Shown one piece after another: positions 4,038 through 61,025 of a stretch of DNA of 64,000 nt. The DNA is taken from the NCBI GenBank assembly GCA_002085025.1, contig MZGK01000002.1, forward strand, positions 15,341-79,340, written 5' to 3'. Each line of letters opens with the position of its first letter. Position 1 is the stretch's first letter. The notes under the pieces are model-generated. The model was given only the letters and a program-made list of their open reading frames with translations. It was not told the DNA's origin and searched no databases. This stretch comes from Candidatus Omnitrophica bacterium 4484_213 (GTDB lineage Bacteria > Omnitrophota > 4484-213). A program made the translations under genes and the position numbers.

Positions 4038-5658
4038 TCCGAATTATCAACGAATTTACCCCGTTAGAAAGCCCCGTTTCCTTCTTCCTTATAGGGGCAA
4101 ATTCCTTATAGGAACGATAAAGAAGTTGTTCCCATTTATACTTGATAGAATTAGTCATTAGGCATTCTAGAATTCTTTTTACTACCTGTTGGATACTCAT
4201 CTCTGTTGTATCAATATAAATCGCGTCTTTGACCCTTTTTAAAGGAGCAACCTTTCTTTCGCTGTCCTTTTTGTCTCTAATTTTGATATTTTGCTCAATT
4301 TTTTCCAGAGATAATTTTTCTCCTTGTAGAGCTCCTGGTTGAGTAAGGAGTTGCTTGTATCGCCGTTTTGTTCTTTCTTCTATAGAGGCGTCTAAGTAAA
4401 ATTTCTTTGCCTGCGGGAAGACAACACTTCCTATATCTCTGCCCTCAGCAACGATATCTTTCCCCTCGCTTATCTTCCGCTGCAAGATAACCATCCTTTT
4501 TCTTATTTCAGGGAGTTTTGCCAAATAGAAAACTTTATTGGTTATCTCCTCTTTTCGGATTTCCCTCTCCACATCTTTCCCATCGAGAAGCAAAACCGGT
4601 TTCTTCGCTTTTTTAAAGCGGAAATTAATCTCTGTTTCTTGACACATTTTTATCAAGCGAGCCTTATCTCTTAAGTCAATCCCCTCCTTTATTGCCTTTA
4701 AGGTAATCGCCCGATACATTGCCCCAGTATCTAAATAGTAAAAACCCAATTTGGCTGCTAATTTTTGGCTAACTGCGCTCTTTCCTGCTCCTGCAGGCCC
4801 GTCAATAGCAATAACTATTCTCTCCTCCTTTAATTTTTTCTGCCTCGCTTTTTTAAATTCCTTTGTTATTTCCTGTGAATCCCCCTTCTGAATTAAATCT
4901 CGCATTATTATTAAATGTTCAATAAAAGCCTCAAGGGCCCTGCTAATTTCTTCTTTGTTGTCTATGCAGATATCCCTTCGCAATGAAGCATCGCTTAAAG
5001 CAATGCGGGTTGAATCTTTCCAACCCTTAGCCGCATATTTTAGGTATCTCTCAGAGACGGAATTCACCAAACTTACGGCGGCAATATGGGGCAAATGGCT
5101 TATCTCGGCTACAATTTTATCGTGCTGAGCAGCAGAGGTAATTTTTGCCCTGCTTCCTACCTCTTCCCATAATTGTTTAACCTTTTTTAAAGCGGCTATA
5201 TCTGTTTTCTTTGATTTTATTAAAAAGGTAAGTGAGTTAGCGAAGAGATCTCTACGCGCAGCTCTCACTCCTTTCTTCTCTGAGCCGGCTAAGGGATGAC
5301 CGCCAACAAAATGGATTTCCCGCGGGAGAATTCTTTCTATTTCTTGTGTAATTTTCTTCTTAGTGCTACCTACATCGGTTATCAGAGAACCTGCACGCAA
5401 AAAAGGGATGATCTTCTGGACAGTAGAAACAACTTCTCCCACCGGGGTGCAGATAATTATTAACTCACTTTCTTGGGCATCTTTTAGTTTTAAACTTCCT
5501 TTATCTATCGCTCCGAGTTTCACTGCCTCCTCTATTGTCTTCTCATGTTTAGCAATGCCAAAGACTTGTCTTGCTAACTTTTTTCTCTTTATAACCAATC
5601 CTAAAGAACCACCGATTAGACCTGTGCCAATAATGGTAATTTTATTGAATTTTTTCAT
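3946..5658 (-). CDS. Prephenate dehydrogenase fused in frame to cytidylate kinase; the 3' end of the ORF reads through a repeat element
   Basis: N-terminus has IIGTGLIGGSLG and HPLAG (TyrA). From about nt 4815 downward it reads IAIDGPAGAGKS...YLDTGAMYR (Cmk). The C-terminal 35 aa (YKWEQLLYRSYKEFAPIRKKETGLSNGVNSLI) are a translation of the repeat at 4045-4142, so the true stop is uncertain. Confidence 0.75.
   Translation of the reverse strand: MKKFNKITIIGTGLIGGSLGLVIKRKKLARQVFGIAKHEKTIEEAVKLGAIDKGSLKLKDAQESELIIICTPVGEVVSTVQKIIPFLRAGSLITDVGSTKKKITQEIERILPREIHFVGGHPLAGSEKKGVRAARRDLFANSLTFLIKSKKTDIAALKKVKQLWEEVGSRAKITSAAQHDKIVAEISHLPHIAAVSLVNSVSERYLKYAAKGWKDSTRIALSDASLRRDICIDNKEEISRALEAFIEHLIIMRDLIQKGDSQEITKEFKKARQKKLKEERIVIAIDGPAGAGKSAVSQKLAAKLGFYYLDTGAMYRAITLKAIKEGIDLRDKARLIKMCQETEINFRFKKAKKPVLLLDGKDVEREIRKEEITNKVFYLAKLPEIRKRMVILQRKISEGKDIVAEGRDIGSVVFPQAKKFYLDASIEERTKRRYKQLLTQPGALQGEKLSLEKIEQNIKIRDKKDSERKVAPLKRVKDAIYIDTTEMSIQQVVKRILECLMTNSIKYKWEQLLYRSYKEFAPIRKKETGLSNGVNSLIIRNALLFFPLSGKDFFQNIFSPKSTGNRKYSF
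4045..4142 (+). repeat. REP-like element family 1 (atcaacgaatttaccccgttagaaagccccg...ggaacgataaagaagttgttcc...), copy 1
   Basis: Near-identical about-95-bp copy at 26548-26646. Contains hairpins gcccc...ggggc and ggaac-GATAAAGAAGTT-gttcc. Confidence 0.8.
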
Positions 5659-12462: not shown

Positions 12463-12582
12463 GAAAAGTTTAAAATGTCTAATTGCTCTAATTAAATAAA
12501 AATTTGGTGATTGGTTATTATTTGGTTATTGTATCTTGGTGTTTGGTTATTATCTGTTTAGGTCAATTAGACATTAGACATC
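12456..12582. mobile_element. MITE-like element family 2 (TIR aatgtctaattg ... caattagacatt; internal TTGGTTATT subrepeats), internally deleted copy
   Basis: Shares both ends with the about-200-bp copy at 51741-51958, including flanking gtaccaagaaaagtttaaa. Confidence 0.7.
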
Positions 12583-14719: not shown

Positions 14720-15385
14720 TTATATAATAATTACAAACTCCCCTTTTGCTCCTTTCTCTTTAAAATAAGTGATTAATTCCGAAATTTTTCCTCTGTTTAC
14801 CTCTTCAAATTTTTTGGTGAGTTCACGGCAAACAGCTATCTTTTTATCGCCTAAAAAATTTAGTAAATCTTTTAAGGTTTTTAATAAACGATGGGGGGCT
14901 TCGTACAAGATTACTGTTCTTTCTCCCTCGGCAATTTCTCTCAAGCGGTTTTCTCTTTTTTTGCTTTTGCGAGGTAGATAACCCTCGAAGATAAATCTAT
15001 CCGGAGCAGCCCCCGAGACTACCAAAGCGGCTAATAAAGCCGAGGCACCGGGAATGGGGACTACGCAGATGTTTTCTTTTATTGCTAAGGTAACGAGATA
15101 AAAACCAGGGTCGCTTATGCAAGGCGTGCCGGCATTACAAACCAGAGCAATATCCCTGCCATGTTTTAATTTCTTAATTAGAACATCTGCGCGGGCAATC
15201 TTATTGTAGTCAAAATAGCTGAGCAGAGGGGTTTTTATTTTATAATGCGAAAGAAGTTTTCTTGTCTGACGAGTATCCTCAGCGGCAATTAGATGTACAT
15301 TCTCTAAAGTCTCCAATGCCCTTAGGCTGATATCTTTCAGATTTCCAATAGGCGTGCTGACGATGTATAATTTACCCTGTTGCAT
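14720..15385 (-). CDS. rsmI: 16S rRNA (cytidine1402-2'-O)-methyltransferase
   Basis: LYIVSTPIGNLKDISLRALETL...AAEDTR tetrapyrrole-methylase fold. Confidence 0.8.
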   Translation of the reverse strand: MQQGKLYIVSTPIGNLKDISLRALETLENVHLIAAEDTRQTRKLLSHYKIKTPLLSYFDYNKIARADVLIKKLKHGRDIALVCNAGTPCISDPGFYLVTLAIKENICVVPIPGASALLAALVVSGAAPDRFIFEGYLPRKSKKRENRLREIAEGERTVILYEAPHRLLKTLKDLLNFLGDKKIAVCRELTKKFEEVNRGKISELITYFKEKGAKGEFVIII

Positions 15386-24823: not shown

Positions 24824-25287
24824 TATTCCTGCCGTTTATCCTCAGCAATTATTATCTTCAATAATTCTTTCTCGCTCTTTGCCTGCCGCAGAGAGAGACA
24901 AAAATTCTTATCTTTAAGAAGACGGGATATCCTTGCCAATGCTTTTAAATGCGGTCCTGAAGAATTCCGAGGAGCTACCAATAAAAAGAAGATATAGACC
25001 AATTCTCCATCCAGGGCATCGAATTTTACCCCTTGCTTAGAAATCCCCACAGCGCCAGTTAATTTCCTTATTGTATCTGACTTACCGTGAGGAATAGCAA
25101 TCCCCTGGCCAATTCCGGTGCTTCCCAACTCCTCTCTCTCCATAAGGGTTTTGACCAAGACATCTTTCTGTTCAGCCTCCCCCGCTTTTATCAATAAATC
25201 TACCAATTCTTCAATCACTCCTTTTTTGTCTTTAGCCAAGAGATTGACGCTGACTGCTTTCTGGTTTAAAAAATCTACAATTTTCAT
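24823..25287 (-). CDS. ptsN: PTS IIA-like nitrogen regulatory protein
   Basis: PTS_EIIA_2 fold with GIAIPHGK active-site His. Confidence 0.8.
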   Translation of the reverse strand: MKIVDFLNQKAVSVNLLAKDKKGVIEELVDLLIKAGEAEQKDVLVKTLMEREELGSTGIGQGIAIPHGKSDTIRKLTGAVGISKQGVKFDALDGELVYIFFLLVAPRNSSGPHLKALARISRLLKDKNFCLSLRQAKSEKELLKIIIAEDKRQE

Positions 25288-25455
25288 TTTTAATAAGCAC
25301 GCGATTTACGGAACGAAGTGCTCGTAAATCGCTGTGCACATTGAGCCCAGCGCTTATTTTACCAAGAACAGTTGAGAATAAAACATAAGCATAGCTTTTA
25401 AAAAATTGTTTTATTTAAAAATTACCTTGATGATAAAATAAGCGCTGGGAAATTC
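25288..25455. other. Shared leader / long inverted-repeat element family 3 (agcacg-hairpin-gctgtgcNNattgaRcccagcNNNNAtttt ... about 75 nt AT-rich ... aaaaTNNNNgctggg) abutting the ptsN start
   Basis: Arms gagcccagcgcttatttt / aaaataagcgctggg. The same architecture with compensatory changes occurs at 43213-43365 and 48963-49046, and a truncated copy at 55689-55765. Confidence 0.65.
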
Positions 25456-25500
25456 CACTAACAAATTTGCGAAGCACTTCGTGCAACGCAAATTTGAGTT

Positions 25501-25788
25501 TCATTTATTTTTTATCTTATCCTTTAAATGAGAGAGCTGTTCTTCTACTTTGTCAATCGCTTTATTTAAACAAAAGCGAAGGTCCTCATTCTCTTCTTTG
25601 GCTGTGCAGGTTAACTTCTTAGCTGATAGAATTATTTCCGTGAGGTACCTCTCCTTCTGGCGAGAAATAACAACATGCACATTAATAATATGAGTAAAAT
25701 ATTTCTTAAATCGCTCTACCTTAGTTTCAATATCTCTTTTTAAATTATCACTTAGTTCAAAATGCCTTCCGGTAATTGTAAGATTCAT
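25501..25788 (-). CDS. hpf: Ribosome hibernation promoting factor
   Basis: MNLTITGRHFELSDNLKRDIETKVERFKKYF matches the RaiA/HPF family. Confidence 0.85.
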   Translation of the reverse strand: MNLTITGRHFELSDNLKRDIETKVERFKKYFTHIINVHVVISRQKERYLTEIILSAKKLTCTAKEENEDLRFCLNKAIDKVEEQLSHLKDKIKNK

Positions 25789-26529: not shown

Positions 26530-28831
26530 TTAAAAGTAGAGAGATATCAACGAATTTACCCCGTTAGAAAGCCCCGTTTCCTTCTTCCTTATAGGGGCAA
26601 ATTCCTTATAGGAACGATAAAGAAGTTGTTCCCATTTATACTTGATAGTCAATATCTCAGGCAACTTTTCTATGTTTCTAGCTGTGGCTTGGGCAAAGTC
26701 AACCTTCCCCCCGCCTCTTCCATCCAGCTGCTCGGCAATTTCATTAATCACCTGTCCACAGTGAATTTTCCCGCTTAAATCTCTCGTGGTAGTCATTATT
26801 AAATAAATCTTATTATCCTTCACCGAGGCCAAGCCAATAACATCTAAATCTATCTTTTTTCTGAGAACATCGGAGATCTCTCTTAATTCAGGAAAATCAA
26901 AACCGAAGAACTGGCGAATAACTACATCCCTTTCCTTCTCCTGATTAAGAGAAGCAAAGATGTCCTTAGCATAATAACCAAATAATTCTCTTTTCAATCT
27001 CTCATTTCTCTTCTTCGACTCTTTTAGCTGCTGAATAATATCCTTTGCTTTCTCAATTATTTTTTTACGCGAAGCAGAAAAGATTTGGGCAAGCTCTTCA
27101 ATCTTGTTTTCTTCTTCTTTTATTAATTGATAAAGTCCTTCGGACATGGACACCACCACAAAATTCCTTACTGTAATTACCGATAGAAACAACTTGCACT
27201 TCTTCTCCATATTTCTCCTCAAACAAACCAATTGCCCCAGCCTCAATTGCTTTTTGTTTGGGCATTAATTCCCTTTCCACGGCGTCATTGTTTAAAATTC
27301 TATTATTAACCATTTCCTCTACCTTTGTCAACTCCTCTTTGGTTAAACCCCGGGGGTGGGTAAAGTCAAAATGGAAATAAGCCGGAAAGATAATGGAACC
27401 GGCCTGTCTGATATGTCTGCCCAGAATTTCTCTTAACACACTTTGCAAAATGTGAGTGGCTGTGTGATTGCGAGCAACATCTATCTCTTCTTCTCCCCAC
27501 ACCCCTAGCAAAGGTAATCCTTGCTTTTTTGCCCTTTCCTTTTCATCTTGCTTAGTAAAAATTTGTTTATTAAAAACTGATTTTTCTCTTGAACGCCGAC
27601 GTTGTTTTTCCACATATTGAATGAATTTCTGCCTATTTAACTCAATTCCTCTCTGGGAGACCAAATTTTCAATTTCTTCATAGGGAAGACCATAAGTATC
27701 ATAGAGTTCAAAAGCGGTTTTTTCGTTTATATCCTTTTTGTTATCTAAAATTGATATCGCTCGATTTATTGTTTGGATAAATTTCGCTTCTTCCTCTTTT
27801 ATTGTTTCTTTTATCCTTTTTTCTGCCTCTTTGACCTCAGGATAAACGCCCTCGGCGAGTTTGACAACAACTGGCACTAAATTATATAAAAAAGGAGATT
27901 CTATCTTTAAATCTCTCCCCAAACTGGCTGCCTTGCGAATCAACTTTCTAATTACATAGCCTTCCCTTTCATTAGCGGGAATAGCACCATCAGCAATGGT
28001 AAATACGACCGCTCGGATGTAATCAGCAATGATATAATGAGCGGGTAGCGGGTAGCGGGTAGCGGGTAGCGGGAGAGATTCTACGATTAGCTTGAAGAGG
28101 TCGGTTTCAAAGTCGTTTCGCACACCTTGGAGCACTGCAGTGAGTCGTTCCAGGCCCATCCCGGTATCAACATTCTTATTTTTCAATTCTTCTATTTTGC
28201 CCTTATCGCGATTAAACTGGGTAAACACAAGGTTCCACACCTCTATAGAGTTATCGGGGCAGAATTCTTCCCTGCCTTGCTGGCCAGTAGCTTCCCAATC
28301 ATAGAAAATTTCCGAACAAGGACCACAAGGCCCATCCGGACCCTCCTCCAGGGCATTGCTTGGCCAGAAATTCTCTCTCGAACCAAATTTTTTAATCCTT
28401 TCTTCAGGAAGCCCGATTTTCTTTTTCCATATTTGCGCGCTCTCTTCATCGTCTTCAAAGACTGAAACCCATAACTTCTCAGCCGGGAGGCTTAACTTTG
28501 AGGTCAAGAATTCCCATGCCCACTTAATCGCCTCTTCCTTATAATAATCCCCAAAAGAAAAATTGCCCAGCATCTCAAAGAATGTGTGGTGGCCTGGAAC
28601 CCTCCCTACTTCTTCTATATCGGCTGTCCGCAAGCACTTCTGACAGGAAGCCGCTCTTTTTAGATCTTTGGGTGGATGCAAAAAGAACTCCTTGAATTGA
28701 TTCATCCCTGCTGAGGTGAATAATAAGGAAGGGTCATCTTGGGGAAGCAGAGAAGATGAAGGAAAAATCTTGTGCCCCTTTTCCTTGAAGAAACTCAAAA
28801 ATTTCTCTCTGATTTCATTAGCAGTTGTCAT
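26530..28831 (-). CDS. alaS: Alanyl-tRNA synthetase, split into two overlapping ORFs (27098..28831 and 26530..27246) by a frameshift near nt 27150; the C-terminus reads into REP-like element
   Basis: N-terminal catalytic core (FTSAGMNQFK...), then FCGGVHV where the frame is lost, and the continuation SEGLYQLIKEE...DHHA1 GRGGGKVDFAQA in another frame. Confidence 0.8.
26548..26646 (+). repeat. REP-like element family 1, copy 2
   Basis: Near-identical to 4045-4142. Confidence 0.8.
28041..28073. repeat. Heptanucleotide tandem repeat (GCGGGTA)x4.7 inside the alaS coding sequence
   Basis: gcgggtagcgggtagcgggtagcgggtagcggg encodes LPATRYPLPA in frame. Confidence 0.8.
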
Positions 28832-42078: not shown

Positions 42079-43209
42079 CTATACTTTTTCATAAGGGTCA
42101 AACAACTTTTTATATTCCTCGAGAGCAAATCTATCGGTCATTCCGGCGATATAATCACAGATTGTTCTCTCTAATCCTTCCTTTTTAATTTTCTCCTGGC
42201 AGGAGAAAGGCAGTTGCGTCGGTTTCTTTAAATATATCTCGAAAAGCTGCTTAATAAACCGCTGAGCTTTGTTTGTCATCCGCATTACCCGATAGTGGTA
42301 GTAAAGATTCTTGAATAAAAAATCTTTCAATTGCTTACGCTTCTCAAATATCTCTTTGCTAAAGGAAATTAAACCCTCTGATTTATGAACCTCTTCTCTA
42401 CTTTTAATATCCTTTAATCTTCTTTCCGATTCGTTTATTAAATCAGTAGTAGCAAGATTTATTAGGGACTTTATGGTCTGATATTTCAGTATTTCTTTGT
42501 TAGTAATTTTTTTAGCTAATGGCTCATAGATGTCTCGCCAGATTTTTACCTTTAAGAGCTGCTCTTCGTCAATTAAGTTAGCGGTAAGCCCATCGTCTAA
42601 ATCGTGGCTGTCATAGGCAATCTCATCGGCTAGATTTACTACTTGCGCCTCTAAGGTGGGTTGTTTATTCTTGAATTCTTTATTTGCCTGGTCAAAAAGA
42701 GTTTTATGCTTGGCAATGCCCTCCCGTGTCTCATAGCTTAGATTTAACCCCTTAAAATCGGGGTATCTCTCTTCCAATAGGTCAACTACTCTTAACCCTT
42801 GCTGATTGTGCTCAAAACCGCCAAAATTCTGCATTAACTCTCGGAGAGCATTTTCGCCGGCATGACCAAAAGGGGTATGTCCGATATCGTGGGCAAGGGC
42901 AATTGCTTCGGTTAAATCCTCATTCAATCTTAGAGAACGGGCAATAGAAACAGCAATTTGGGCTACTTCTAAGGTATGCGTAAGCCGGGTGCGGTAATAA
43001 TCGCCCTCGTGATTTACAAATACCTGGGTCTTATATTCTAATTTACGAAAGGCATTGGAATGGATTATTCTATCTCTATCACGTTGATAAACCGAACGAA
43101 AGGGGTGTTCTTCTTCTTTATGAACCCTTCCTTGTGTATATTTACTTTTGGCCGCATAAGGAGCAAGAATTTTCTCTTCTCTTTGCTCTAATTGCTCACG
43201 GGTTAGCAT
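42079..43209 (-). CDS. dgt: dGTP triphosphohydrolase-like HD-domain protein
   Basis: YRTRLTHTLEVAQIA...HDIGHTPFGHAGE. Confidence 0.85.
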   Translation of the reverse strand: MLTREQLEQREEKILAPYAAKSKYTQGRVHKEEEHPFRSVYQRDRDRIIHSNAFRKLEYKTQVFVNHEGDYYRTRLTHTLEVAQIAVSIARSLRLNEDLTEAIALAHDIGHTPFGHAGENALRELMQNFGGFEHNQQGLRVVDLLEERYPDFKGLNLSYETREGIAKHKTLFDQANKEFKNKQPTLEAQVVNLADEIAYDSHDLDDGLTANLIDEEQLLKVKIWRDIYEPLAKKITNKEILKYQTIKSLINLATTDLINESERRLKDIKSREEVHKSEGLISFSKEIFEKRKQLKDFLFKNLYYHYRVMRMTNKAQRFIKQLFEIYLKKPTQLPFSCQEKIKKEGLERTICDYIAGMTDRFALEEYKKLFDPYEKV

Positions 43210-43212
43210 TCA

Positions 43213-43365
43213 ATGAGCACGTAATCCCGAAAGCTTTCGGGATTGCTGTGCGAATTGAACCCAGCACTAATTTTCATAGAAATCAGTGATTGCTTTGTTT
43301 GAAGATGTAAGGTTGTTAAATTTATAGATTAATTTTGTATCTCAAAAATTAGTGCTGGGTAAGTT
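43213..43365. other. Family 3 long inverted-repeat element abutting the dgt start (hairpin aatcccgaaagctttcgggatt, then arms gaacccagcactaattttc / gaaaattagtgctgggtaag with 66-nt spacer)
   Basis: Aligns position-for-position with 25288-25455. The hairpin and the arm interiors differ but stay complementary. Confidence 0.65.
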
Positions 43366-43410
43366 CGACTAAAGCTTTGCGAAACAGCAAGTGCTTCGCA
43401 AAACCAAGTT

Positions 43411-43740
43411 TCATTTATTCTTCTCTACATATTTCATCATCACTTCATAAAGCAAATTCTTTAACATCTGTTCCTCATCTTTATCCAGATTCCCTTTGGT
43501 TTTTTGCTCTAAAATTTCTAAAATATCAATTGTTTGCTTTGCCTGTTTTAAATCCTGTTCTTTTTTATTAGTCAGGGGATTGACAATCTCTCCCAAATGC
43601 ATCAGCGCCTGCATTCCTAAACTGGAAATGAACAAACTAAAACTCATCTTGAGAGGAGGTATCTGATTTTCAGACTCCCTTTTCTTGCTATTTTCTTCAC
43701 TCTCTTTTTCTCTATTCAGCACTTCCTCTTTAGCGTCCAT
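43411..43740 (-). CDS. Hypothetical small acidic protein (DUF1844-like)
   Basis: Only weak recognition: SLFISSLGMQALMHLGEI hydrophobic core flanked by charged tails. Confidence 0.35.
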   Translation of the reverse strand: MDAKEEVLNREKESEENSKKRESENQIPPLKMSFSLFISSLGMQALMHLGEIVNPLTNKKEQDLKQAKQTIDILEILEQKTKGNLDKDEEQMLKNLLYEVMMKYVEKNK

Positions 43741-48903: not shown

Positions 48904-48962
48904 CCATCAATAATGCCACAATTTAGGCGACTGATAAGGAGACTAAATTGTATGGCAGAATT

Positions 48963-49046
48963 GACCCAGCACTAATTTTCTGCTGTGCCCTAAACCATTT
49001 TTTAGGGCTGTGGATTAAGCATCTCTAAAAAATTAGTGCTGGGTAA
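48963..49046. other. Family 3 inverted-repeat element (arms gacccagcactaattttc / aaaaaattagtgctgggtaaa, 45-nt spacer with internal hairpin)
   Basis: Seen directly. It occupies the space where the ychF 5' end should be. Confidence 0.65.
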
Positions 49047-49060
49047 ACTTGAATATAATA

Positions 49061-55435: not shown

Positions 55436-55686
55436 TCTGTTACTTTATAGACCTTATCGTGCTCATGCACTCTTTGGTTAACCTTGATTCCCACCTGGTC
55501 CCCGGGCTTCCCTTCCTGCACCTCTTGATGCTCAATCTGGAGAGAGTCTACTCTCTGGCTGAAATCGCTGGTATGTCCTTTGATATGGATGGTATCGCCA
55601 AGTTTTAGGACATCGGTCAAAGCAATTATCCCTACACCAATCTTGCCAAAATAATGAGTAATCGTACCGATTTCTTTTTCTTCCAT
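55432..55686 (-). CDS. Small beta-barrel protein resembling EF-Tu domain 2
   Basis: GTITHYFGKIGVGIIALTDVLKLGDTIHIKG; weak family assignment. Confidence 0.35.
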   Translation of the reverse strand: MEEKEIGTITHYFGKIGVGIIALTDVLKLGDTIHIKGHTSDFSQRVDSLQIEHQEVQEGKPGDQVGIKVNQRVHEHDKVYKVTE

Positions 55687-55688
55687 TT

Positions 55689-55765
55689 TTAATAAGCACG
55701 CAACTTACGGCACGCCTACCTAACGGCAGGAAGTGCTCGTAAATCACTGTGCGCATTCCGTCATC
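55689..55765. other. Truncated family-3 leader (agcacg-caacttacgg...aagtgctcgtaaatcactgtgcgcattcc) abutting the start of the small beta-barrel gene
   Basis: The first 20 nt upstream of the ATG (gcgtgcttattaaaaATG) are identical to the ptsN leader at 25288. Confidence 0.55.
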
Positions 55766-55818
55766 GCCAAGGATCTGGCGGAGAGAAAAGCAGGCACTCA
55801 TCTAAATTATGGTTTCAT

Positions 55819-56238
55819 TTACCCCAACGTTTCAATCGCCTTATCATTATCTTCAACCTTCAAAATAAAACGACAGGGAGAAGTGCCCTCAGAAACAGTG
55901 CCATAGCAATACAGTAGATTAACACCTGCTGACTTTAATTTCGCCCCAATCTGGCTCAGTGCACCTATCTTATTTTCTAAATCAATCCTTACAACTTCTT
56001 CCTCTTCAACCTGCCACCCCTTTGTTTTAAGAGCGGGGATAACTTTCTGATTTTCCGAAGTAATGATGTAAAACTTCGCTTTTCCCTCTAAACCATGGGC
56101 ATTGATTGCTTCAATATTTACATCTGCCTCGCTTATGGCTTGACTTACCTCGGAAAGCATCCCAGCCTTATCTTCCGTAGTTATAACTAATTGACTTATC
56201 TTTATACCTGACTTCGGTTCAGGTCCTCTTTCTGTCAT
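55819..56238 (-). CDS. Tandem ACT-domain protein
   Basis: Two beta-alpha-beta-beta-alpha-beta modules (IKISQLVITTEDKAGMLSEV...; VRIDLENKIGALSQIGAKL...). Confidence 0.55.
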   Translation of the reverse strand: MTERGPEPKSGIKISQLVITTEDKAGMLSEVSQAISEADVNIEAINAHGLEGKAKFYIITSENQKVIPALKTKGWQVEEEEVVRIDLENKIGALSQIGAKLKSAGVNLLYCYGTVSEGTSPCRFILKVEDNDKAIETLG

Positions 56239-56253
56239 TTACACCTCCTTTCC

Positions 56254-57138
56254 TTACTCGCGAAGCGAGAGCCGAAGTTCCCCGTAGGGGAACTGAGGAT
56301 AGGAAATCTGCAAAGCAGATTTCCGCTTTTGTTTTTTTCCTTTCCTTACTAACGGACAACGCCCACAATCAGGTTTTGTCTTTTTGCAGATATCCTTTCC
56401 TAGACGCACAAAAAGGGCGTGGAACTCGTTGAACAATTGAGCATCTAAAGGTAGGTTCTGCATAAAAAGCTGTTGAATCTCCTGATAATCTGCCTTCTCG
56501 GAAATCAATTGGAGACGCGATAATATCCGGCGGGTATAAGCATCCACCACAAACACTGCTCTATTTCCCGCATAAAGCAAAATAGAATCGGCGGTCTCCC
56601 GACCAATACCTTTAATCTCCAATAACTCCTGACGGAGAAGATGCGTCTCTTTTTTAAACATCCTTTTGACACTACCGCCGTAATTAATAAACAGAAAATC
56701 TATAAACGCCTTCAGCTTTTTTGCTTTTTCATTAAAATAACCCGCAGAACGAATTGCCTTGGCTAAATCTTCGAGCGGCACATCCCTTAACCCTCGCGCC
56801 GAAAGCAACCCTTGTTCTTTGAGATTTCTGATCGCTTTCTCCACATTTGTCCAGGCCGTATTCTGGGTCAAGATTGCTCCGGCAATTATCTCAAGGGAAT
56901 CTTCTCCAGGCCACCAATTTTGTGGACCAAATGCCTTGTAGAGCCGCTGATAAATTGTCTGGATTTTCACCATCTCTTTCCCCCCTATAAAAACAGCAGA
57001 TTCCCGCCTGGATCTAAAAAGAGAAGAGAATCTCCCGCCATCTCCCTTTAACATCCTGCGCGATAACTTTAAATTTATACCAATATCTTTATTCAAACTA
57101 TTATCTATGAGAAGTGCACCTTTTCTTTTATTTTCCAA
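56254..57138 (-). CDS. HhH-GPD base-excision glycosylase (endonuclease III-like). The N-terminal about 57 aa and the C-terminal about 12 aa of the ORF are probably spurious (C-terminus is repeat-derived)
   Basis: GPQNWWPGEDSLEIIAGAILTQNTAWTNVEKAI...IKGIGRETADSILLYA HhH-GPD motifs. The C-terminal ...FPYGELRLSLRE is a translation of the family-4 unit. Confidence 0.65.
   Translation of the reverse strand: MENKRKGALLIDNSLNKDIGINLKLSRRMLKGDGGRFSSLFRSRRESAVFIGGKEMVKIQTIYQRLYKAFGPQNWWPGEDSLEIIAGAILTQNTAWTNVEKAIRNLKEQGLLSARGLRDVPLEDLAKAIRSAGYFNEKAKKLKAFIDFLFINYGGSVKRMFKKETHLLRQELLEIKGIGRETADSILLYAGNRAVFVVDAYTRRILSRLQLISEKADYQEIQQLFMQNLPLDAQLFNEFHALFVRLGKDICKKTKPDCGRCPLVRKGKKQKRKSALQISYPQFPYGELRLSLRE
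56262..56360 (+). ncRNA. Family-4 structured unit (ccttactcgcgaagcgag-AGCCGAAG-ttccccgtaggggaa-CTGAGGATAG-gaaatctgcaaagcagatttc-cgcttttgttttttt) plus abortive start of a second unit
   Basis: On the plus strand it ends in a canonical hairpin-plus-T7 intrinsic terminator. Its reverse complement ends ...CGCGAGTAAGGAAAGGAGGTGTAAATG, i.e. the SD and start of the ACT-domain gene. Confidence 0.65.
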
Positions 57139-57465
57139 TACCCTTTGAAAATCAAGGCGTGAATTTCCTTTGTTTTTCGCTTAAGATGGATCTTTTGACA
57201 TTGATATACAATTCCCTGATTTTTATTTACCTCCCATTTACTTTGAAATGTAAGGGTGCTTATCTCTCCTATTCTTTAATTAGCCGATTATAGGAACCTA
57301 TTTCATCTCTTACTTTTGTCATAAATTATGCCTCACAGATTAAATGCAGATTGCACAATTCTCTATCGTATTTTTATCGCTGTAATCAGCATCGGATTGA
57401 AAATCCGGTGCAATAAAAAACCTTCGCAAAAACAGCAAAGGTTTTTTCATAATTCACTAAAAAAT

Positions 57466-57545
57466 ATGGCCGGCTAAACCCCGTTAGAAACGTTGCCAAA
57501 TAATTTCATTTTGGAAGGGATCCCTAACGGGGTAAACCGGCCTCT
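57466..57545 (-). terminator. Long REP-like hairpin (ggccggctaaaccccgttag ... ctaacggggtaaaccggcc) followed on the minus strand by a U-run: cspA terminator
   Basis: About 20-bp arms of the GTTTACCCCGTTAG family. Minus-strand sequence after the hairpin is atatttttt. Confidence 0.6.
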
Positions 57546-57558
57546 TTGTCTTTTTAGG

Positions 57559-57759
57559 TTATAACTTCACTACATTTGTGGCTTGTTCACCTTTAGAGCT
57601 TTGCTCGATATCAAACTCAACCTCCTGGCCTTCCTCCAAAGACTTAAAACCTTCACCCTGAATTGCACTATAATGTACAAATATGTCATTGCCTCCCTCA
57701 GGGGTAATAAATCCATAACCTTTCTGGTTGCTGAACCATTTCACCTTTCCTCTTGCCAT
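57559..57759 (-). CDS. cspA: Cold-shock protein
   Basis: [33 protein letters not shown] (RNP1/RNP2 motifs). 66 aa. Confidence 0.9.
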
Positions 57760-57770
57760 TACTTATTTCA

Positions 57771-58040
57771 CCTCCTTTCCTTACTCGCGAAGCGAGAGCC
57801 GAAGTTCCCCGTAGGGGAACTGAGGATAGGAAATCTGCAAAGCAGATTTCCGCTTTTGTCTTTTTCTTTCCTTACTCGCGAAGCGAGAGCCGAAGCCAGC
57901 CAATTTCCTTTTAAGGACAATAGAGAAGTTGTCCCTAATAATACCTGTAGCTTTAGCGCAGGTAGGCTGAGGATGGTCCCGAAGTTTCGGGGGGAATGGA
58001 GCAGGATAAATCTACTCTGCAAATTTCGCTCTCGTTTCCC
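57771..58040 (+). ncRNA. Two tandem family-4 structured units forming the long 5' leader of cspA (minus strand); the second unit is expanded with extra hairpins
   Basis: Unit A 57771-57866 is identical in its core to 56262-56345. Unit B 57867-58040 keeps ctcgcgaagcgag-agccgaag and ctgaggatgg but has a larger variable region including the ggacaATAGAGAAGTTgtcc hairpin. The reverse complement of the junction gives CGCGAGTAAGGAAAGGAGGTGAAATAAGTAATGGCAAGA (SD plus cspA start). Confidence 0.65.
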
Positions 58041-58044
58041 TAAT

Positions 58045-58140
58045 AAAACGAGTATAGCATATACTATTTTTTTCTACTTGTCAACCCTGTTAAATAACCT
58101 GGGGCAATTCGCCATAGGCGAATTATTTAACAGGGTTGAC
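58045..58140 (-). promoter_or_regulatory. Candidate cspA promoter (minus strand TTGACA-N17-TATGCT) overlapped by a 19-bp perfect inverted repeat ttgtcaaccctgttaaataa ... ttatttaacagggttgac with inner hairpin ggcaattcgcc/ggcgaattatt
   Basis: The motifs are visible. The -35 hexamer is part of the palindrome arm, a classic operator arrangement. Confidence 0.4.
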
Positions 58141-58154
58141 TAAATTAATCTAAA

Positions 58155-58328
58155 AATTATTCTATCTCCTCAAATTCCACATCCACAGCATCTTTGTAAT
58201 TAGATTTATCATTCTTGTTTCTCTTGTGATAACCTTTATGGCTAAAAGTTTCTTTCCCTAAAATAAGCTTAAACAGAAAACGAAATAATAAATAAAGAAG
58301 CAACAATCTCACGATCAAACTTACCATT
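58155..58328 (-). CDS. Small membrane protein (57 aa), not in the supplied ORF track
   Basis: Reverse-complement [59 protein letters not shown], preceded by a strong SD GGGGGAGGG 7 nt upstream. Confidence 0.35.
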
Positions 58329-58415
58329 TTTACCCTCCCCCCTACCTTACTTCCACCGCCCAGGTGAGGTAATTGCGAAGTAGGAGTTTAAATTACGAAC
58401 TCTCACGGTGTAAAT

Positions 58416-59270
58416 CTAATCAAAAATAACGGTTTTATTATTATAGACAAGAATTTTTCTCTCTAAATGCCACCTCACGGCGCGACCCAAAACTATCTTC
58501 TCTAAATCTTGACCTTTTCTTATTAAGTCATCGAGAGAATCCCGATGGCTTATCCTGATAGTATCTTGCTCAATAATTGGGCCGGCATCCAACTTTTTTA
58601 TAAGGTAATGGCTGGTAGCACCGATAATCTTAACTCCTTTTTCGTAGGCTTGTTTGTAAGGTTGGCTACCTGCAAATGCAGGAAGGAAAGAATGGTGGAT
58701 GTTTATAATTTGCTCCGGAAATTCTTCTACAAATTGTTTGCTAAGAATCTGAGTGTATCTCGCCAGAACAATAAGGTCAATCTCTTCCTGTTTTAATAGC
58801 GCTATTTCCCTCTTCTCTTGTTGCAACTTATTTTCCTTAGTAATAGGGAACTCTACAAATCTGATACCGAAACTATCGGCGGTTTCCTTGGCAAGGGAGT
58901 GATTACTTATAATTAAAGGCAGTTCACAATTTAGCTCACTCCCTTTAAAGCGCAAGAGCAGGTCGTGGAGACAGTGTTCATATTTAGAGACAAAAATAGC
59001 CATACGCATGACTTTATCAGCGAAGTGAAGTGCCCAGCGCATTTTGAACCTATCTGCCAAGGGTCTAAAACTTTCAGCAATCTTACCCTTCTCGATTTTA
59101 AAATCCTTCAGTGACCATTCAATTCTCATAAAGAAGGTATTGGTCTGAGAATCTATATGCTGGTCGGCGTGTTCTATATTGCCGTTATTTTGATATATAA
59201 AATTAGCAACACTGGCGGTGATTCCTTTTGTATCCGGGCAGGAAATAAGAAGCATGGCATTATTATTCAT
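58416..59270 (-). CDS. purU: Formyltetrahydrofolate deformylase
   Basis: N-terminal ACT domain (MLLISCPDTKGITASVANFI) plus formyltransferase core (HHSFLPAFAG). Confidence 0.85.
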   Translation of the reverse strand: MNNNAMLLISCPDTKGITASVANFIYQNNGNIEHADQHIDSQTNTFFMRIEWSLKDFKIEKGKIAESFRPLADRFKMRWALHFADKVMRMAIFVSKYEHCLHDLLLRFKGSELNCELPLIISNHSLAKETADSFGIRFVEFPITKENKLQQEKREIALLKQEEIDLIVLARYTQILSKQFVEEFPEQIINIHHSFLPAFAGSQPYKQAYEKGVKIIGATSHYLIKKLDAGPIIEQDTIRISHRDSLDDLIRKGQDLEKIVLGRAVRWHLERKILVYNNKTVIFD

Positions 59271-59368
59271 AACAAATTCAAACCCTCCTTAAATTTCTTG
59301 GTAATCCAATTCAATCGGGAGCTCAAAAATATCCCGTCTAATTGGCTCGCGTTTTTTCTTGCTTTTTC

Positions 59369-59824
59369 CTATTCCCCTATCAAATGCGGAATTACTATCC
59401 ACAAAAGATACCAGTTTTCTTCCTTCTCCAGAGAGACAACTCCCCCGGGATAAAATTTAATCAAATTTAGGTCCTTATTTCCTGATAAGAGCAGAGAGGC
59501 TAAACTTGCCAAAAAAGGCAAGTGCCCGACGAGCATTAAATCTAAATTAGATTTAATAATCTCCGAGGGAAGTTTCTCCACCGGGTCAAGGGGATTAATA
59601 TCCTCTCTTTCAACCAGATCTTCACCTATACCTACCTCCTTAAAAATCTGAGCAGTTTGAATTGCTCTCAACTTCTTGCTATGCCAGATGCAATCTATTT
59701 TTACCTTTCCTTTTAGAAAATTCGCTATTTTAAAAACATCTGTTTTTCCTTTTTCAGATAAGGGTCGCTCTGGAGCAGTTTCCTTAGATAAAGCCTCTCC
59801 ATGTTGAACTAAATACAACCTCAT
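59369..59824 (-). CDS. sixA: Phosphohistidine phosphatase SixA-like (histidine phosphatase superfamily)
   Basis: LYLVQHGEA...RAIQTAQI...LVGHLPFL (RHG-like catalytic His context). Confidence 0.65.
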   Translation of the reverse strand: MRLYLVQHGEALSKETAPERPLSEKGKTDVFKIANFLKGKVKIDCIWHSKKLRAIQTAQIFKEVGIGEDLVEREDINPLDPVEKLPSEIIKSNLDLMLVGHLPFLASLASLLLSGNKDLNLIKFYPGGVVSLEKEENWYLLWIVIPHLIGE

Positions 59825-59855
59825 TCTTCACCTCCTTTTCCAGCTTTAGTTTATT

Positions 59856-60200
59856 TTAACAGGTAAGATGAAAAGCGCCTACTGCTTTTTTACCCTTCTC
59901 AATATACTCGTTAAAAATCTGATAAGCTTGGCTGATATTCTTCTCAATGAGCTCTATCTGCTTATCTTTAAGCACTTTCTTGGTGCACTTAGGTATATCT
60001 ACAGCGCCGTACGCCCCCGTGCCAACTATCAACACCTCTGGTTTATAATCTATCACTTCTTTTAAATCCTCTATTGCTAAACACTGCCCTTCCCTCCGCC
60101 ACCAGTTGGTCCTGACTCTTTCAGGAAAAATAATCAAATCTCTATTATATACCTTGCTATCAATGGTCATCAAACCGAATGAGTAGGTCTCAATTTTCAT
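59856..60200 (-). CDS. Mth938-like (DUF498) domain protein
   Basis: Weak family recognition (EVLIVGTGAYGAVDIP). Confidence 0.4.
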   Translation of the reverse strand: MKIETYSFGLMTIDSKVYNRDLIIFPERVRTNWWRREGQCLAIEDLKEVIDYKPEVLIVGTGAYGAVDIPKCTKKVLKDKQIELIEKNISQAYQIFNEYIEKGKKAVGAFHLTC

Positions 60201-60361
60201 CTTTGATTAATTCAAATAGAGATATTCATTATGGAACGCTCATTTTCCCTCTCGTTTTAACCAAGGGAAGTTTTATCACCATCCTCTTCGTTTCTTCTGT
60301 AACATTGGCTGTGATAGTTAAGACACTGACAATCAACAAAGATAGAATCTTTTTCTGCATC

Positions 60362-60717
60362 TTATCCTGAGATTTTCTTTAGTAAATCTGCAAATCTCTT
60401 GGCAAATCTTTGGCAGTTAGCTTCTACCCTTTTGTCCAAAGCGCCAATGGCTACCGGGCCATAGTGGTCGCCCTCGGAGTCGCCCTGAACAACCATTCCG
60501 TGAATAAGCATTGCCTCTAAAATGCTCAAGATAGCGGTTTCATTTCCTCCGCCGATATTATTAGAAGAAGTGAATGCTCCTCCTATTTTTCCATCCAACT
60601 TTCCTCAACCCTTTTAAGAATAACCTCCAGATTTTCTTTTTTAATGGACTCAGCGATTGTCTCAGCCATCTGTTTGGTATTCCCTGTCTTTGAATAATAA
60701 GCAATCAATACCTTCAT
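60362..60717 (-). pseudogene. WrbA-like flavodoxin (NAD(P)H:quinone oxidoreductase) in two frames with the central about 70 aa absent
   Basis: MKVLIAYYSKTGNTKQMAETIAESIKKENLEVILKRVEE (WrbA N-terminus) ends at stop 60583. A second frame gives LDGKIGGAFTSSNNIGGGNETAILSILEAMLIHGMVVQGDSEGDHYGPVAIGALD (WrbA C-terminal half). Confidence 0.5.
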
Positions 60718-61025
60718 TTTGTACCTTTTTTCCTTACTCGCCGAAGGCGAGAGCCGAAGCCCGCCTACGCTCGTAGGCGGGCTGAGGATAGGAAATCTGC
60801 AAAGCAGATTTCCGCTTTTTGTCTTTTCCTTTCTCGCGAATCGAGAGCCTGCCTGCGCCCGTAAGGGTAAGCGAAACGAAGGATAGAAATGGACGAAGTC
60901 CATTTCGCTTTTATTTATTTCCTTTCTTTGCTCGCCAGTTCCTTTTAAGGGCAATAGAGAAGTTGCCCCTAATTATACCTGAAGGTGAGAGCCAAAGCCT
61001 CGAGAGTTCAAGGCTGAGGATAAAA
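60718..61025 (+). ncRNA. Three tandem family-4 structured units between the flavodoxin gene and the wrbA-like gene
   Basis: Unit 1 (60727-60815) has ctcgccgaaggcgag and cccgcctacgctcgtaggcggg as covarying substitutes for hairpins 1 and 2. Unit 2 (60822-60905) has ctcgcgaatcgag and a terminal hairpin aaatggacgaagtccattt plus T-run. Unit 3 (60910-61025) carries gggcaATAGAGAAGTTgccc and ends ctgaggataaaag. Confidence 0.65.

Follow-up and report, generated by a model that had tools for sequence, protein, structure and literature searches.

The 64,000-nucleotide stretch analysed here (the window; contig MZGK01000002.1 of Candidatus Omnitrophica bacterium 4484_213, positions 15,341 to 79,340) contains hairpin-rich repeats that lie directly upstream of genes. 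A conserved hairpin module ending in ...GTGCTYATTRAA immediately precedes dgt, ptsN and an 84-aa open reading frame (ORF), and in two of these copies a long inverted repeat is also present. As the substantial ORFs of the window are all located on the minus strand, the elements are read on this strand as the sense strand. In a first-pass annotation of the sequence, these repeats were suggested to be a regulatory leader for translation initiation without a Shine-Dalgarno (SD) sequence or a protein-binding cruciform. We consider it likely that the feature is instead a non-autonomous, gene-less miniature of a modular palindromic mobile element of Candidatus Omnitrophota, similar to a miniature inverted-repeat transposable element (MITE).

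The repeats and hairpins of the window are genuine and go beyond chance. The 17-mer CGTGCTTATTAAAAATG occurs exactly twice, at 25285-25301 and 55684-55700 of the minus strand (chance expectation of 0.5 in the window at up to three mismatches), the variant CGTGCTCATTGAATG is present a single time, with its end at the dgt ATG (43209), and CTGGGYTCAATKYGCACAG is found two times against 0 expected. Arms of the CCCAGCRCTWATTTT type form three inverted pairs (25346/25435, 43260/43345 and 48965/49029; 0.9 expected), in which arms of 16-19 bp surround AT-rich spacers of 49-70 nt. The hairpins GCGATTTACG/CGTAAATCGC and AATCCCGAAAG/CTTTCGGGATT are both present and 100% complementary. The first-pass annotation was therefore right about the near-identical sequence before three genes, the full complementarity of the short hairpins and the lack of an SD sequence at the start codons of dgt, ptsN and the 84-aa ORF, which the elements adjoin. 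It also described the arms and AT-rich spacer as a family trait, which applies to the three inverted pairs but not to the copy at 55689, where the long inverted repeat is missing.

The copy upstream of dgt (copy A) is a whole miniature of 205 nt (43209..43413, minus strand), as judged from its sequence, from an empty orthologous site in a related contig (L042; loci retrieved from other genomes carry L numbers) and from its folding, the sense strand of a 216-nt segment reaching z = -7.6 against shuffles. It starts with a TGA (43413-43411) that is also the stop codon of a DUF1844 gene, and ends with ATTGAA, the last A of which (43209) doubles as the A of the dgt ATG. Directly 5' of it, on the same strand, is the host sequence TAAA (43414..43417), the candidate target, located within the AAT AAA codons of DUF1844; this AATAAA is also found in the empty site of L042. 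On the sense strand, the element comprises a left-end hairpin (HP1, AACTTGGTTTTGCGAAG...CGCAAAGCTTTAGT, 43368..43410), which is absent from the orthologue (L037) in the metagenome-assembled genome (MAG) AUK068; the linker CGAACTTA (43360-43367); the long inverted repeat (HP2, 43259..43360), with arms ACCCAGCACTAATTTT and AAAATTAGTGCTGGGT and a 70-nt AT-rich interior; and the right-end module (HP3, 43209..43259; TTCAATTC-GCAC-AG-AATCCCGAAAGCTTTCGGGATT-AC-GTGC-TC-ATTGAA), which scores 60.8 bits with a covariance model of right ends (R1). The interval originally delimited, 43213-43365, misses HP1 and the true 5' end.

Copy B is a whole miniature of 215 nt in the hpf-ptsN junction (25289..25503, minus strand; R1 74.4 bits), between the TGA stop of hpf (Ribosomal_S30AE; 25503-25501) and the ptsN ATG (25287-25285), and consists of HP1 (arms within 25462-25496), HP2 (arms 25346-25364 and 25431-25449) and HP3 (25289-25346). 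Copy D (55688..55817, minus strand; R1 41.4 bits), which has an orthologue in AUK068 (L018), is a deleted derivative that keeps the left-end start TGAAACCATAATTTAG and lacks the long inverted repeat, with a 30-nt extra hairpin (..CTCCGCCAGATCCTTGGCGATGACGGA..) and an enlarged HP3 apex; its host TAAA (55818-55821) includes the upstream TAA stop, and the downstream ATG is at 55686. Copy C (48909..49047, plus strand) is partial or rearranged, and the region is rearranged in AUK068 as well. It has one left-end-type terminal hairpin (arms 48918-48926 and 48943-48951) and a long inverted repeat (48961-48979 and 49029-49047), but is devoid of the 3' GCACAG...GTGCTYATTRAA module. In all, the window contains three copies with the right-end module and a partial one, a short, non-coding and dispersed multicopy family as expected of MITEs.

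Read in the sense direction, host ..TAAA is followed by TGA-HP1-GAAYTTN-(arm CCCAGCRCTWATTTT..spacer..arm')-TTCAATKC-GCAC-AG-(variable stem-loop)-C-GTGC-TY-ATTRAA and then by ATG. The element thus extends from TGA... to ...ATTRAA, directly 3' of host TAA(A), and about 30 copies have NTAAA or TAAG as their left flank; the TGA is the upstream stop codon in copies A and B, and the host TAA is the stop in copy D. When the 260 nt upstream of each match to the pattern described below were folded, the three-hairpin layout was found to recur in many species, with conserved linkers and a middle inverted repeat of varying sequence (CCCAGCACTTATTTAC, CCCCCCACCACTT, CCCTTGACATT, CCCTGTTAAAT and others). 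The interior of this repeat can also be inverted, as in L008 relative to L003 (66/71 versus 44/71 identity). The right-end modules covary, in line with the structured element that the first-pass annotation had predicted: in 25 modules, 94.9% of cells pair, compared with 86% in shuffles and 21-40% in slid registers, seven HP3 pairs are changed on both sides, and wobbles are exclusively G.U on the sense strand. There is covariation at the base as well, in the stem TTCAAT/ATTGAA (C-G 11, U-A 6, C.A 8). However, the two unrelated hairpin versions of the window, initially taken for compensatory change, are swapped palindromic modules and not point-mutation covariation; compensatory substitutions are instead seen across species.

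A further helix connects the element with its host. The host flank and the first T of the element pair with the linker 3' of HP1, across tandem GA/GA, in matching variants (TAAAT/ATTTA, TAAGT/ACTTA, CAAAT/ATTTG and TGAAT/ATTCA); 98% of cells pair and 0/500 shuffles match that value. In this test, the four base pairs beside GA/GA were imposed by the selection of copies, while the flank pairs were not. The covariance model obtained from the right ends (HP3) also matches the left end, on the opposite strand, in nine full-length elements, and the left and right halves align directly as 60-90-bp inverted repeats that each hold a palindrome. HP1 and HP3 with their linkers are hence inverted copies of each other, that is, terminal inverted repeats, and the putative leader hairpin of the window is one of these two. 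A covarying structure on the sense strand is what a cis-regulatory RNA would display, yet it is equally a trait of hairpin-dependent mobile DNA, and covariation therefore does not discriminate between the two.

Three junctions occur in both the empty and the filled state, showing the presence/absence polymorphism of a MITE (in the sequences that follow, a slash marks an element boundary). The DUF1844-dgt junction of L042, whose dgt is 84% identical, is empty (..GAGAAGAATAAAAAGTGCTAACC; in short form ..GAATAAAAAGTGCTAACC), with the DUF1844 stop overlapping a GTG start; the same junction is filled in the window (..GAGAAGAATAAA/TGAAAC..205 nt..CATTGAA/TGCTAACC) and likewise in AUK068, and contains an arm-type inverted repeat alone in L040 and an unrelated 43-nt spacer in L043. 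The hpf-ptsN junction is empty in L048 (..AAGAATAAAGGAGGGAGATAAATGAAAATT; in short form ..AATAAAGGAGGGAGATAAATG), filled with the SD kept in L046 (AATAAA/TGACAC..element..CTTATTGAA/GGAGGAAGAAACAAATG), filled with the same left junction and the SD lost in the window and L045 (ATTAAA/AATG), and occupied by nothing but a degenerate right module in L047. At lptB-hpf, it is the window that represents the empty state (TTGTAA/GGAGG) and L046 the filled one (TTATAAA/TGAAAC..CATTGAA/GGAGA). At each of the three junctions, the host TAA(A) belongs to the native sequence, and the additional part is the TGA...ATTRAA unit. No clear target-site duplication was found across the copies. A fixed duplication seems unlikely, as candidates range from 8 bp (AAATGAAA in copy B) to 2 bp and are inconsistent between copies, and are partly explained by the frequency of ATGAAA as a gene start. 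TAA(A) or TAAG flanks the element on the left, and its right end is TTGAA or TTAAA. The G variant of the right end covaries with an internal base and is never seen on the left, and judging from these sequences the data seem to fit better with no duplication than with a 3-4-bp duplication of TAAA. The first-pass annotation would have counted its own reading as refuted by target-site duplications typical of a MITE; a MITE is essentially what the element turns out to be, on the grounds of empty sites and an autonomous-looking parent and not of clear duplications.

This parent carries a nuclease gene. In L011 and L024, a small ORF and not a short spacer precedes the right module, and the full-length layout is host TAA(A)/TGA-HP1-GAAYTTNA-(arm CCCnnCACnnnTTTT)-(85-96-aa GIY-YIG/UPF0213 gene)-(arm')-TTCAATKC-HP3-GTGCTYATTRAA/host. 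L011 reads TAAG/TGAGGTC-HP1-GAACTTA-CCCCCCCACCACTTTTT-ORF-AAAAAGTGGTGGGGGG-TTTAATTC-HP3-CTCATTAAA, and L024 is equivalent, with arms CCCTTGACATTTT. Both ORFs belong to Pfam family PF01541 (GIY-YIG; E = 2e-15 and 4e-16), a nuclease gene being thus present within the mobile unit, although the two proteins are just 34-36% identical. The closest solved structures are those of the UPF0213 proteins 1zg2 and 1ywl (E = 2.5e-16 and 1.4e-11), the chains of which were named 'hypothetical protein' by their depositors; weak, more distant matches are to SLX1 (7wme, 7cq2) and UvrC. A protein search yielded 80 homologues and a metagenome scan 35 loci, and architecture was counted over 31 loci. The complete HP1-arm-ORF-arm-HP3 layout, co-oriented with the flanking genes, is present in 10 of these 31 metagenomic GIY-YIG loci, and nearly all surveyed GIY-YIG genes are bracketed by inverted arms of the CCCnnCACnnnTTTT type. 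The full-length elements (L011, L024, L050-L061 and L076) share the HP1, arm and HP3 modules around GIY-YIG, the sole gene type found inside them. The HP2 arms of copy A are of the type that brackets this gene, and those of L076 (CCCAGCACCAATTTT) are identical to them at 14/15 positions. The long inverted repeat of the window copies and its AT-rich spacer are accounted for by deletion of the nuclease gene between the cassette arms down to a 49-74-nt remnant. It is the combination of empty junctions, unrelated downstream genes, arms that bracket GIY-YIG and terminal inverted repeats that leads us to read the window copies as MITE-like miniatures.

GIY-YIG genes with inverted arms of 12-19 bp are also located inside rRNA genes of other bacteria, at several positions (23S in L062, L071, L072-L075, L077 and L078; 16S in L079). 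These rRNA-inserted cassettes have arms alone, without HP1 or HP3, and three loci (L062, L078 and L080) have an apparent -10 box of their own for a leaderless transcript (TATAAT, 6-7 nt, ATG). Arm-only palindromes (e.g., CCCAGCACCACTTTTTGCGTAACAAAAAGTGGTGCTGGG) lie beside full GIY-YIG cassettes in L063 (~2330-2400), L064 (~860-950) and L067 (~2400-2450), and these very short palindromes look like minimal miniatures made of the arms alone.

The distribution of the element was scanned with the pattern GCACAGYRAT-N15-45-YGTGCTYATTRAA in one genome per species. Of the 33 loci obtained, ~24 belong to Candidatus Omnitrophota, spread over 15 or more MAGs, and the others are consistent with the chance estimate. 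The window itself has a match in a metagenome contig, and its ptsN is 100% identical to that of Omnitrophica bacterium 4484_213. The AUK068 MAG has at least eight copies. Its coding DNA is 95-97% identical to that of the window, yet the element modules differ: HP1 is found in one and missing from the other, an additional hairpin of 30 nt separates the arm from HP3, and the apex of HP3 is swapped, being AATCCCGAAAGCTTTCGGGATT in the window and AACCCAGCACTTCCAGAAAGTGCTGGGTT, an arm-type mini-palindrome, in AUK068. The 30-nt hairpin module (..TCCGCCAGAKCCTTGGCGAYGRCGGA..), which comes with a change of TTCAAT to CGGAAT, is found at 55762-55800 of the window, L037:9917-9950 and L007:3276-3320, and looks like a separate small palindromic insertion.

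With respect to genes, the position of the element is exact. Among 29 left ends with a long upstream ORF, this ORF stops at the TGA of the element in 15; in seven its stop is the host TAA, four bases before that, and in five it is a TAA or TAG 8-13 nt inside the element; there are therefore stops in all three frames within 16 nt. On the other side, the start codon is at -1 to +1 of the right end in ~17 of 28 copies, and an SD sequence starts 0-2 nt after it in ~7 (about a quarter). The terminal A of the element completes the ATG in several copies, as in dgt and, in L017, in the gene that follows rplL (L7/L12; recognised by its ..GAKVEVK* C-terminus). In L076, the right end adjoins the canonical N-terminus of EtfB. 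On the minus strand of L017 (4473-4603), the right end (..CTTATTGAA) meets the first base of a tRNA-Trp gene, so that RNase P would be expected to cut right at the boundary of the element.

The first-pass annotation contrasted these SD-less starts with a majority of genes preceded by GGAGG, which does not agree with the counts: an SD-like motif is present at just 12 of 31 pipeline-called gene starts of this lineage (~40%), a figure for which a mechanical check was also made. SD-independent starts are common in this organism. Because of this, and because the element has landed on stop/start junctions, the SD-less start is best read as a by-product of that landing. Other repeat families also end with an A-rich tail right before ATG, e.g., GTAGCCTGAAAA/ATG. 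One of a different type, with the end sequence ..TGTAGCCTGAAAA, immediately precedes the ATG of aroE and lptB (L036:7021-7043 and L045:2810-2832), which makes it a second, unrelated element type that adjoins starts with an A-rich tail and no SD. Neither a promoter nor an intrinsic terminator is predicted inside copies A and B. Read-through in operon mRNA is therefore plausible, and the window copies and their host genes probably share transcripts. For copies A and B, a leaderless mRNA from an internal promoter was thereby discarded, as was an intrinsic terminator. In L006, L009 and L016, sigma-70-like promoters are located ~10-40 nt upstream, ending 3-7 nt before the first base of the element (e.g., TTGACA, 17 nt, TAAAAT; TGATATAAT), and the element would form essentially the entire 5' untranslated region.

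The mobility mechanism that we infer is as follows. The element would land beside TAA(A) or TAAG, which in compact operons often corresponds to the stop codon of the upstream ORF or to its final codons. It brings its own TGA stop, and 0-2 nt separate its end from the SD or the start codon that follows. If the native junction had the order stop-SD-ATG, the SD would end up downstream of the element; if stop and start overlapped or abutted (TAAATG, GTGA), the SD would be stranded upstream and the start codon would come to lie directly behind ATTRAA. Read through in the operon mRNA, the element may fold into three hairpins, and the downstream gene would start from the retained SD or, SD-independently, behind the A/U-rich tail YAUURAA. 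Mobilisation of the cassette may depend on the GIY-YIG protein as a UPF0213/SLX1-like structure-specific nuclease, and the outer HP1/HP3 layer may select the host TAAR by pairing it with the internal ATTTA/ACTTA, as IS200/IS605 does. Arm-bounded cassettes sit at rRNA helix tips, at the centre of a GAATTGA/TCAATTC palindrome between HP1 and HP3, and at the HP3 apex in AUK068, which suggests a preference for insertion at hairpin or helix tips. Since the rRNA-inserted cassettes have neither HP1 nor HP3, these are presumably not needed to move the core, and they would fit an adaptor, or a separate host-element layer, for insertions between genes. In the mRNA, three helices (flank/HP1, the arms, and HP3 with TTCAAT/ATTGAA) could meet in an open junction, by which the insertion would stay compact and the upstream stop and SD might be held near the downstream AUG, so that the hairpins would render the insertion harmless. 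That all this amounts to a new class of transposable element, mobilised by an 85-aa SLX1/UPF0213-like GIY-YIG protein, recognising hairpin tips and a guide-paired TAAR and having ends that fold into a stop-to-AUG three-helix junction, is a tentative proposal whose truth we rather doubt. If it were true, insertion at a stop/start junction would be translationally silent, and the element could be described as parasitic DNA that brings its own RNA adaptor.

Several observations weigh against the reading as MITE-like miniatures. No full-length copy was found within the 64-kb window. The empty sites come from relatives at 75-90% protein identity, and the exact pre-insertion sequence is therefore inferred. 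It is possible that TAAA ... TRAA is after all a 3-4-bp target duplication. Copy A and L076 break the flank-guide pairing by one A.C mismatch each, and the GIY-YIG gene may be mere cargo, with mobilisation due to another enzyme. Moreover, all 28 right-end modules are oriented with the downstream gene, the spacing to the start codon is tight, and wobbles are G.U alone, which also fits an RNA-level role that was co-opted and selected. A dedicated cis-acting RNA leader, the three hairpins of which would be a selected mRNA structure driving or regulating SD-independent initiation, is improbable. It could work as a standby site, by sequestering and releasing the tail next to the AUG, with UUCAA pairing alternatively with one or the other of two UUGAA segments, or by bringing a stranded SD to the AUG. 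Strict sense orientation with the AUG at -1 to +1 or an SD immediately after, the covariation of HP3, with G.U and no A.C wobbles, and of its base stem, a better fold on the sense than on the antisense strand (z of -7.6 versus -5.9), and the L009 element, placed directly after a promoter and before an SD-less start, would all be expected of it. However, the downstream genes (dgt, ptsN, etfB and others, and in one case a tRNA) are functionally unrelated and do not constitute the coherent set that an RNA leader would serve; relatives use an ordinary SD or an overlapping stop/start at the same junctions without the element; hpf-ptsN holds it both with and without an SD; a nuclease gene occupies the middle of full-length copies; near-identical genomes differ by the exchange of entire apical stems; starts without an SD are the norm here; and no Rfam family corresponds to it. 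Empty orthologous junctions, unrelated downstream genes, frequent SD plus ATG and the nuclease-bearing parent thus speak against the leader as the primary explanation, and the same evidence counts against the protein-binding cruciform.

The element could alternatively be moved in trans as single-stranded DNA by a Y1 HUH transposase (TnpA) or a REP-associated tyrosine transposase (RAYT), either as a MITE or palindrome-associated transposable element (PATE) of IS200/IS605 or as a repetitive extragenic palindrome (REP/REPIN), the GIY-YIG gene being merely nested in it. In favour of this reading, there are hairpins with related stems at both ends, insertion occurs 3' of a short host sequence (TAAR) without clear duplication, the host flank pairs and covaries with an internal guide, the right-end ATTGAA resembles a cleavage site and pairs with the TTCAAT 5' of the hairpin, orientation is strand-strict with G.T-tolerant pairing on one strand, and the lack of HP1/HP3 in rRNA-inserted cassettes indicates that the two layers are separable. 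Nevertheless, we regard this explanation as distinctly improbable, given that the ends are long inverted repeats of each other, unlike in that family, that the guide is 3' and not 5' of the left hairpin, and that only GIY-YIG, in its two divergent forms, has ever been found as an ORF inside the inverted flanks. No Y1 transposase or RAYT motif was detected in ~410 kb of fetched Omnitrophota loci, which is weak evidence because a crude regular expression was used. Very unlikely, finally, is a host-domesticated intercistronic element for mRNA processing or stability, with an arm stem cut by RNase III as in rRNA intervening sequences or T7 sites, HP1 as a 3' protective hairpin of the upstream mRNA and HP3 as a 5' protective hairpin of the downstream one, which might become nearly leaderless. 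Consistent with it, the same arms flank GIY-YIG insertions at 16S/23S helix tips, which the mature rRNA is expected to lose, HP1 and HP3 are restricted to copies between protein-coding genes or beside a tRNA and are never seen in rRNA-inserted ones, and the AUG is 0-2 nt from the end of HP3. But processing explains the tolerance of an insertion and not its origin or spread, copy D and others keep HP3 without the arm stem, and the idea is compatible with MITE-like miniatures rather than an alternative to them.

Some other candidates were discarded. The Rfam search of the whole window at the gathering threshold, and of copies A and B at an E-value threshold, returned only tRNAs and chance miRNA-like hairpins, which rules out a known RNA family, ribozyme or group I/II intron. 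A conserved mini-ORF from the ATG of TAAATGA varies in length and sequence (MKLGFAK... of 21 aa, MKP*, MKL*), a hammerhead-like core (UGA-hairpin-GAA) lacks the CUGA part and has no Rfam match, and in an integron attC-like site GTTGAAT would fit GTTRRRY, but the inverse core is unmatched and the neighbours are housekeeping genes.

Among known systems, BOX, bacterial interspersed mosaic elements (BIME)/REP, REPINs, Correia/NEMIS and ERIC are bacterial MITEs or mosaic palindromic repeats. Like them, the element is short, multicopy, hairpin-forming and modular, lies in transcribed intergenic regions, is probably co-transcribed with the flanking genes and is present or absent between relatives. 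It differs in that its parent carries GIY-YIG and not a DDE or Y1 transposase, that each terminal inverted repeat holds its own covarying hairpin, that it is placed to the nucleotide at TAA(A), supplying the upstream stop and adjoining the downstream start, and that no clear target duplication is seen. IS200/IS605 and their PATE derivatives use the Y1 transposase TnpA, and pairing between guide and cleavage site is known for IS608. End hairpins, a short guide-paired 3' target, right-end pairing at the hairpin foot, the apparent lack of a duplication and strand-specific orientation are shared with these elements, whereas the long inverted repeats at the ends, the placement of the guide, the internal GIY-YIG gene and the failure to find Y1 in the fetched loci are not. 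Free-standing homing endonuclease genes of phages, such as T4 seg and mob, are similarly small selfish nuclease genes that lie between conserved genes in the same orientation and are transcribed along with them. By homing, a gene is copied into its own locus in a genome that lacks it. Here, in contrast, each genome has dozens of occupied loci that are unrelated to one another, most of them with gene-less miniatures, occupation is not restricted to one cognate site, and there is no group I/II intron signal; a protein of 85 aa is also too small to include a sequence-specific DNA-binding domain. In eukaryotes, SLX1 works together with SLX4 on branched DNA, and we know of no bacterial insertion-sequence family that uses a GIY-YIG nuclease. 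As for rRNA intervening sequences, the arm-bounded GIY-YIG cassettes are within 16S/23S genes, while the window copies are not in rRNA.

Literature searches on Omnitrophota repeats or structured RNAs and on GIY-YIG miniature or inverted-repeat elements returned nothing relevant except one report, and no paper was found that links the UPF0213 family to mobile elements. This report describes GIY-YIG proteins in non-intron insertions of rRNA genes of the Candidate Phyla Radiation (CPR), which seem not to be spread by homing (Tsurumaki et al., J Bacteriol 2024, PMC11270868). Going by the passages of that paper drawn on here, the CPR insertions encode a small GIY-YIG protein of the same family as the Omnitrophota cassettes, and these passages do not describe miniatures, copies between ORFs or Omnitrophota elements; the phrase 'inverted repeat' is absent from its main text. 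The GIY-YIG loci in rRNA genes of the present analysis have arms (CCCCnCACCAnTTT and its complement) of the same kind as the long inverted repeat of the window. The Omnitrophota copies differ from the CPR rRNA insertions in being located between protein-coding genes, in their additional HP1/HP3, in the gene-less miniatures and in the exact stop/start placement. The element class thus appears to be undescribed in the literature searched. A single mobile-element family would link three phenomena so far regarded as separate: the unexplained GIY-YIG insertions of CPR rRNA genes, the abundant intergenic hairpin repeats of Omnitrophota and SD-less gene starts. If a UPF0213-type protein mobilises the cassettes, this would provide a function for a widespread 'hypothetical' family and a new transposition chemistry. 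The exact occupation of stop/start junctions is, moreover, a natural experiment on how operon translation tolerates structured insertions of 130-600 nt. On the practical side, contigs of Omnitrophota and CPR MAGs break at these elements, gene starts and ends are called wrongly because of them, and searches for structured RNAs could be misled.

The window and its relatives contain further repeats. When positions 31900-53000 are compared with L037 of AUK068, in which coding DNA is 94-97% identical, all nine alignment breakpoints in ~20 kb are intergenic, and every intergenic region of this comparison is rearranged, having been replaced, expanded or shrunk with different hairpin-rich or low-complexity repeats; the turnover of intergenic repeats in this lineage is accordingly extremely fast, to judge by such alignments. 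Further intergenic repeat families, D1, D3 and D7 in 56235-60853 and D4 at 12501, 33563 and 51884, consist of CTCGCGAAGCGAGAGCCGAAG modules and long AATTTGGTGATTGGTTATT.. low-complexity palindromes, and several of them differ in presence between the window and AUK068 (L018). Two identical copies (100%) of a 104-nt stretch, at 4045-4148 and 26545-26648, lie 22.5 kb apart, and the stretch overlaps the 5' regions of two large ORFs as well as repeat families D2 and D6. Lastly, the related Omnitrophota contig L042 encodes, at 1-1428, a GTP cyclohydrolase I with an intein (PT-HINT, Intein_splicing and LAGLIDADG Pfam matches).

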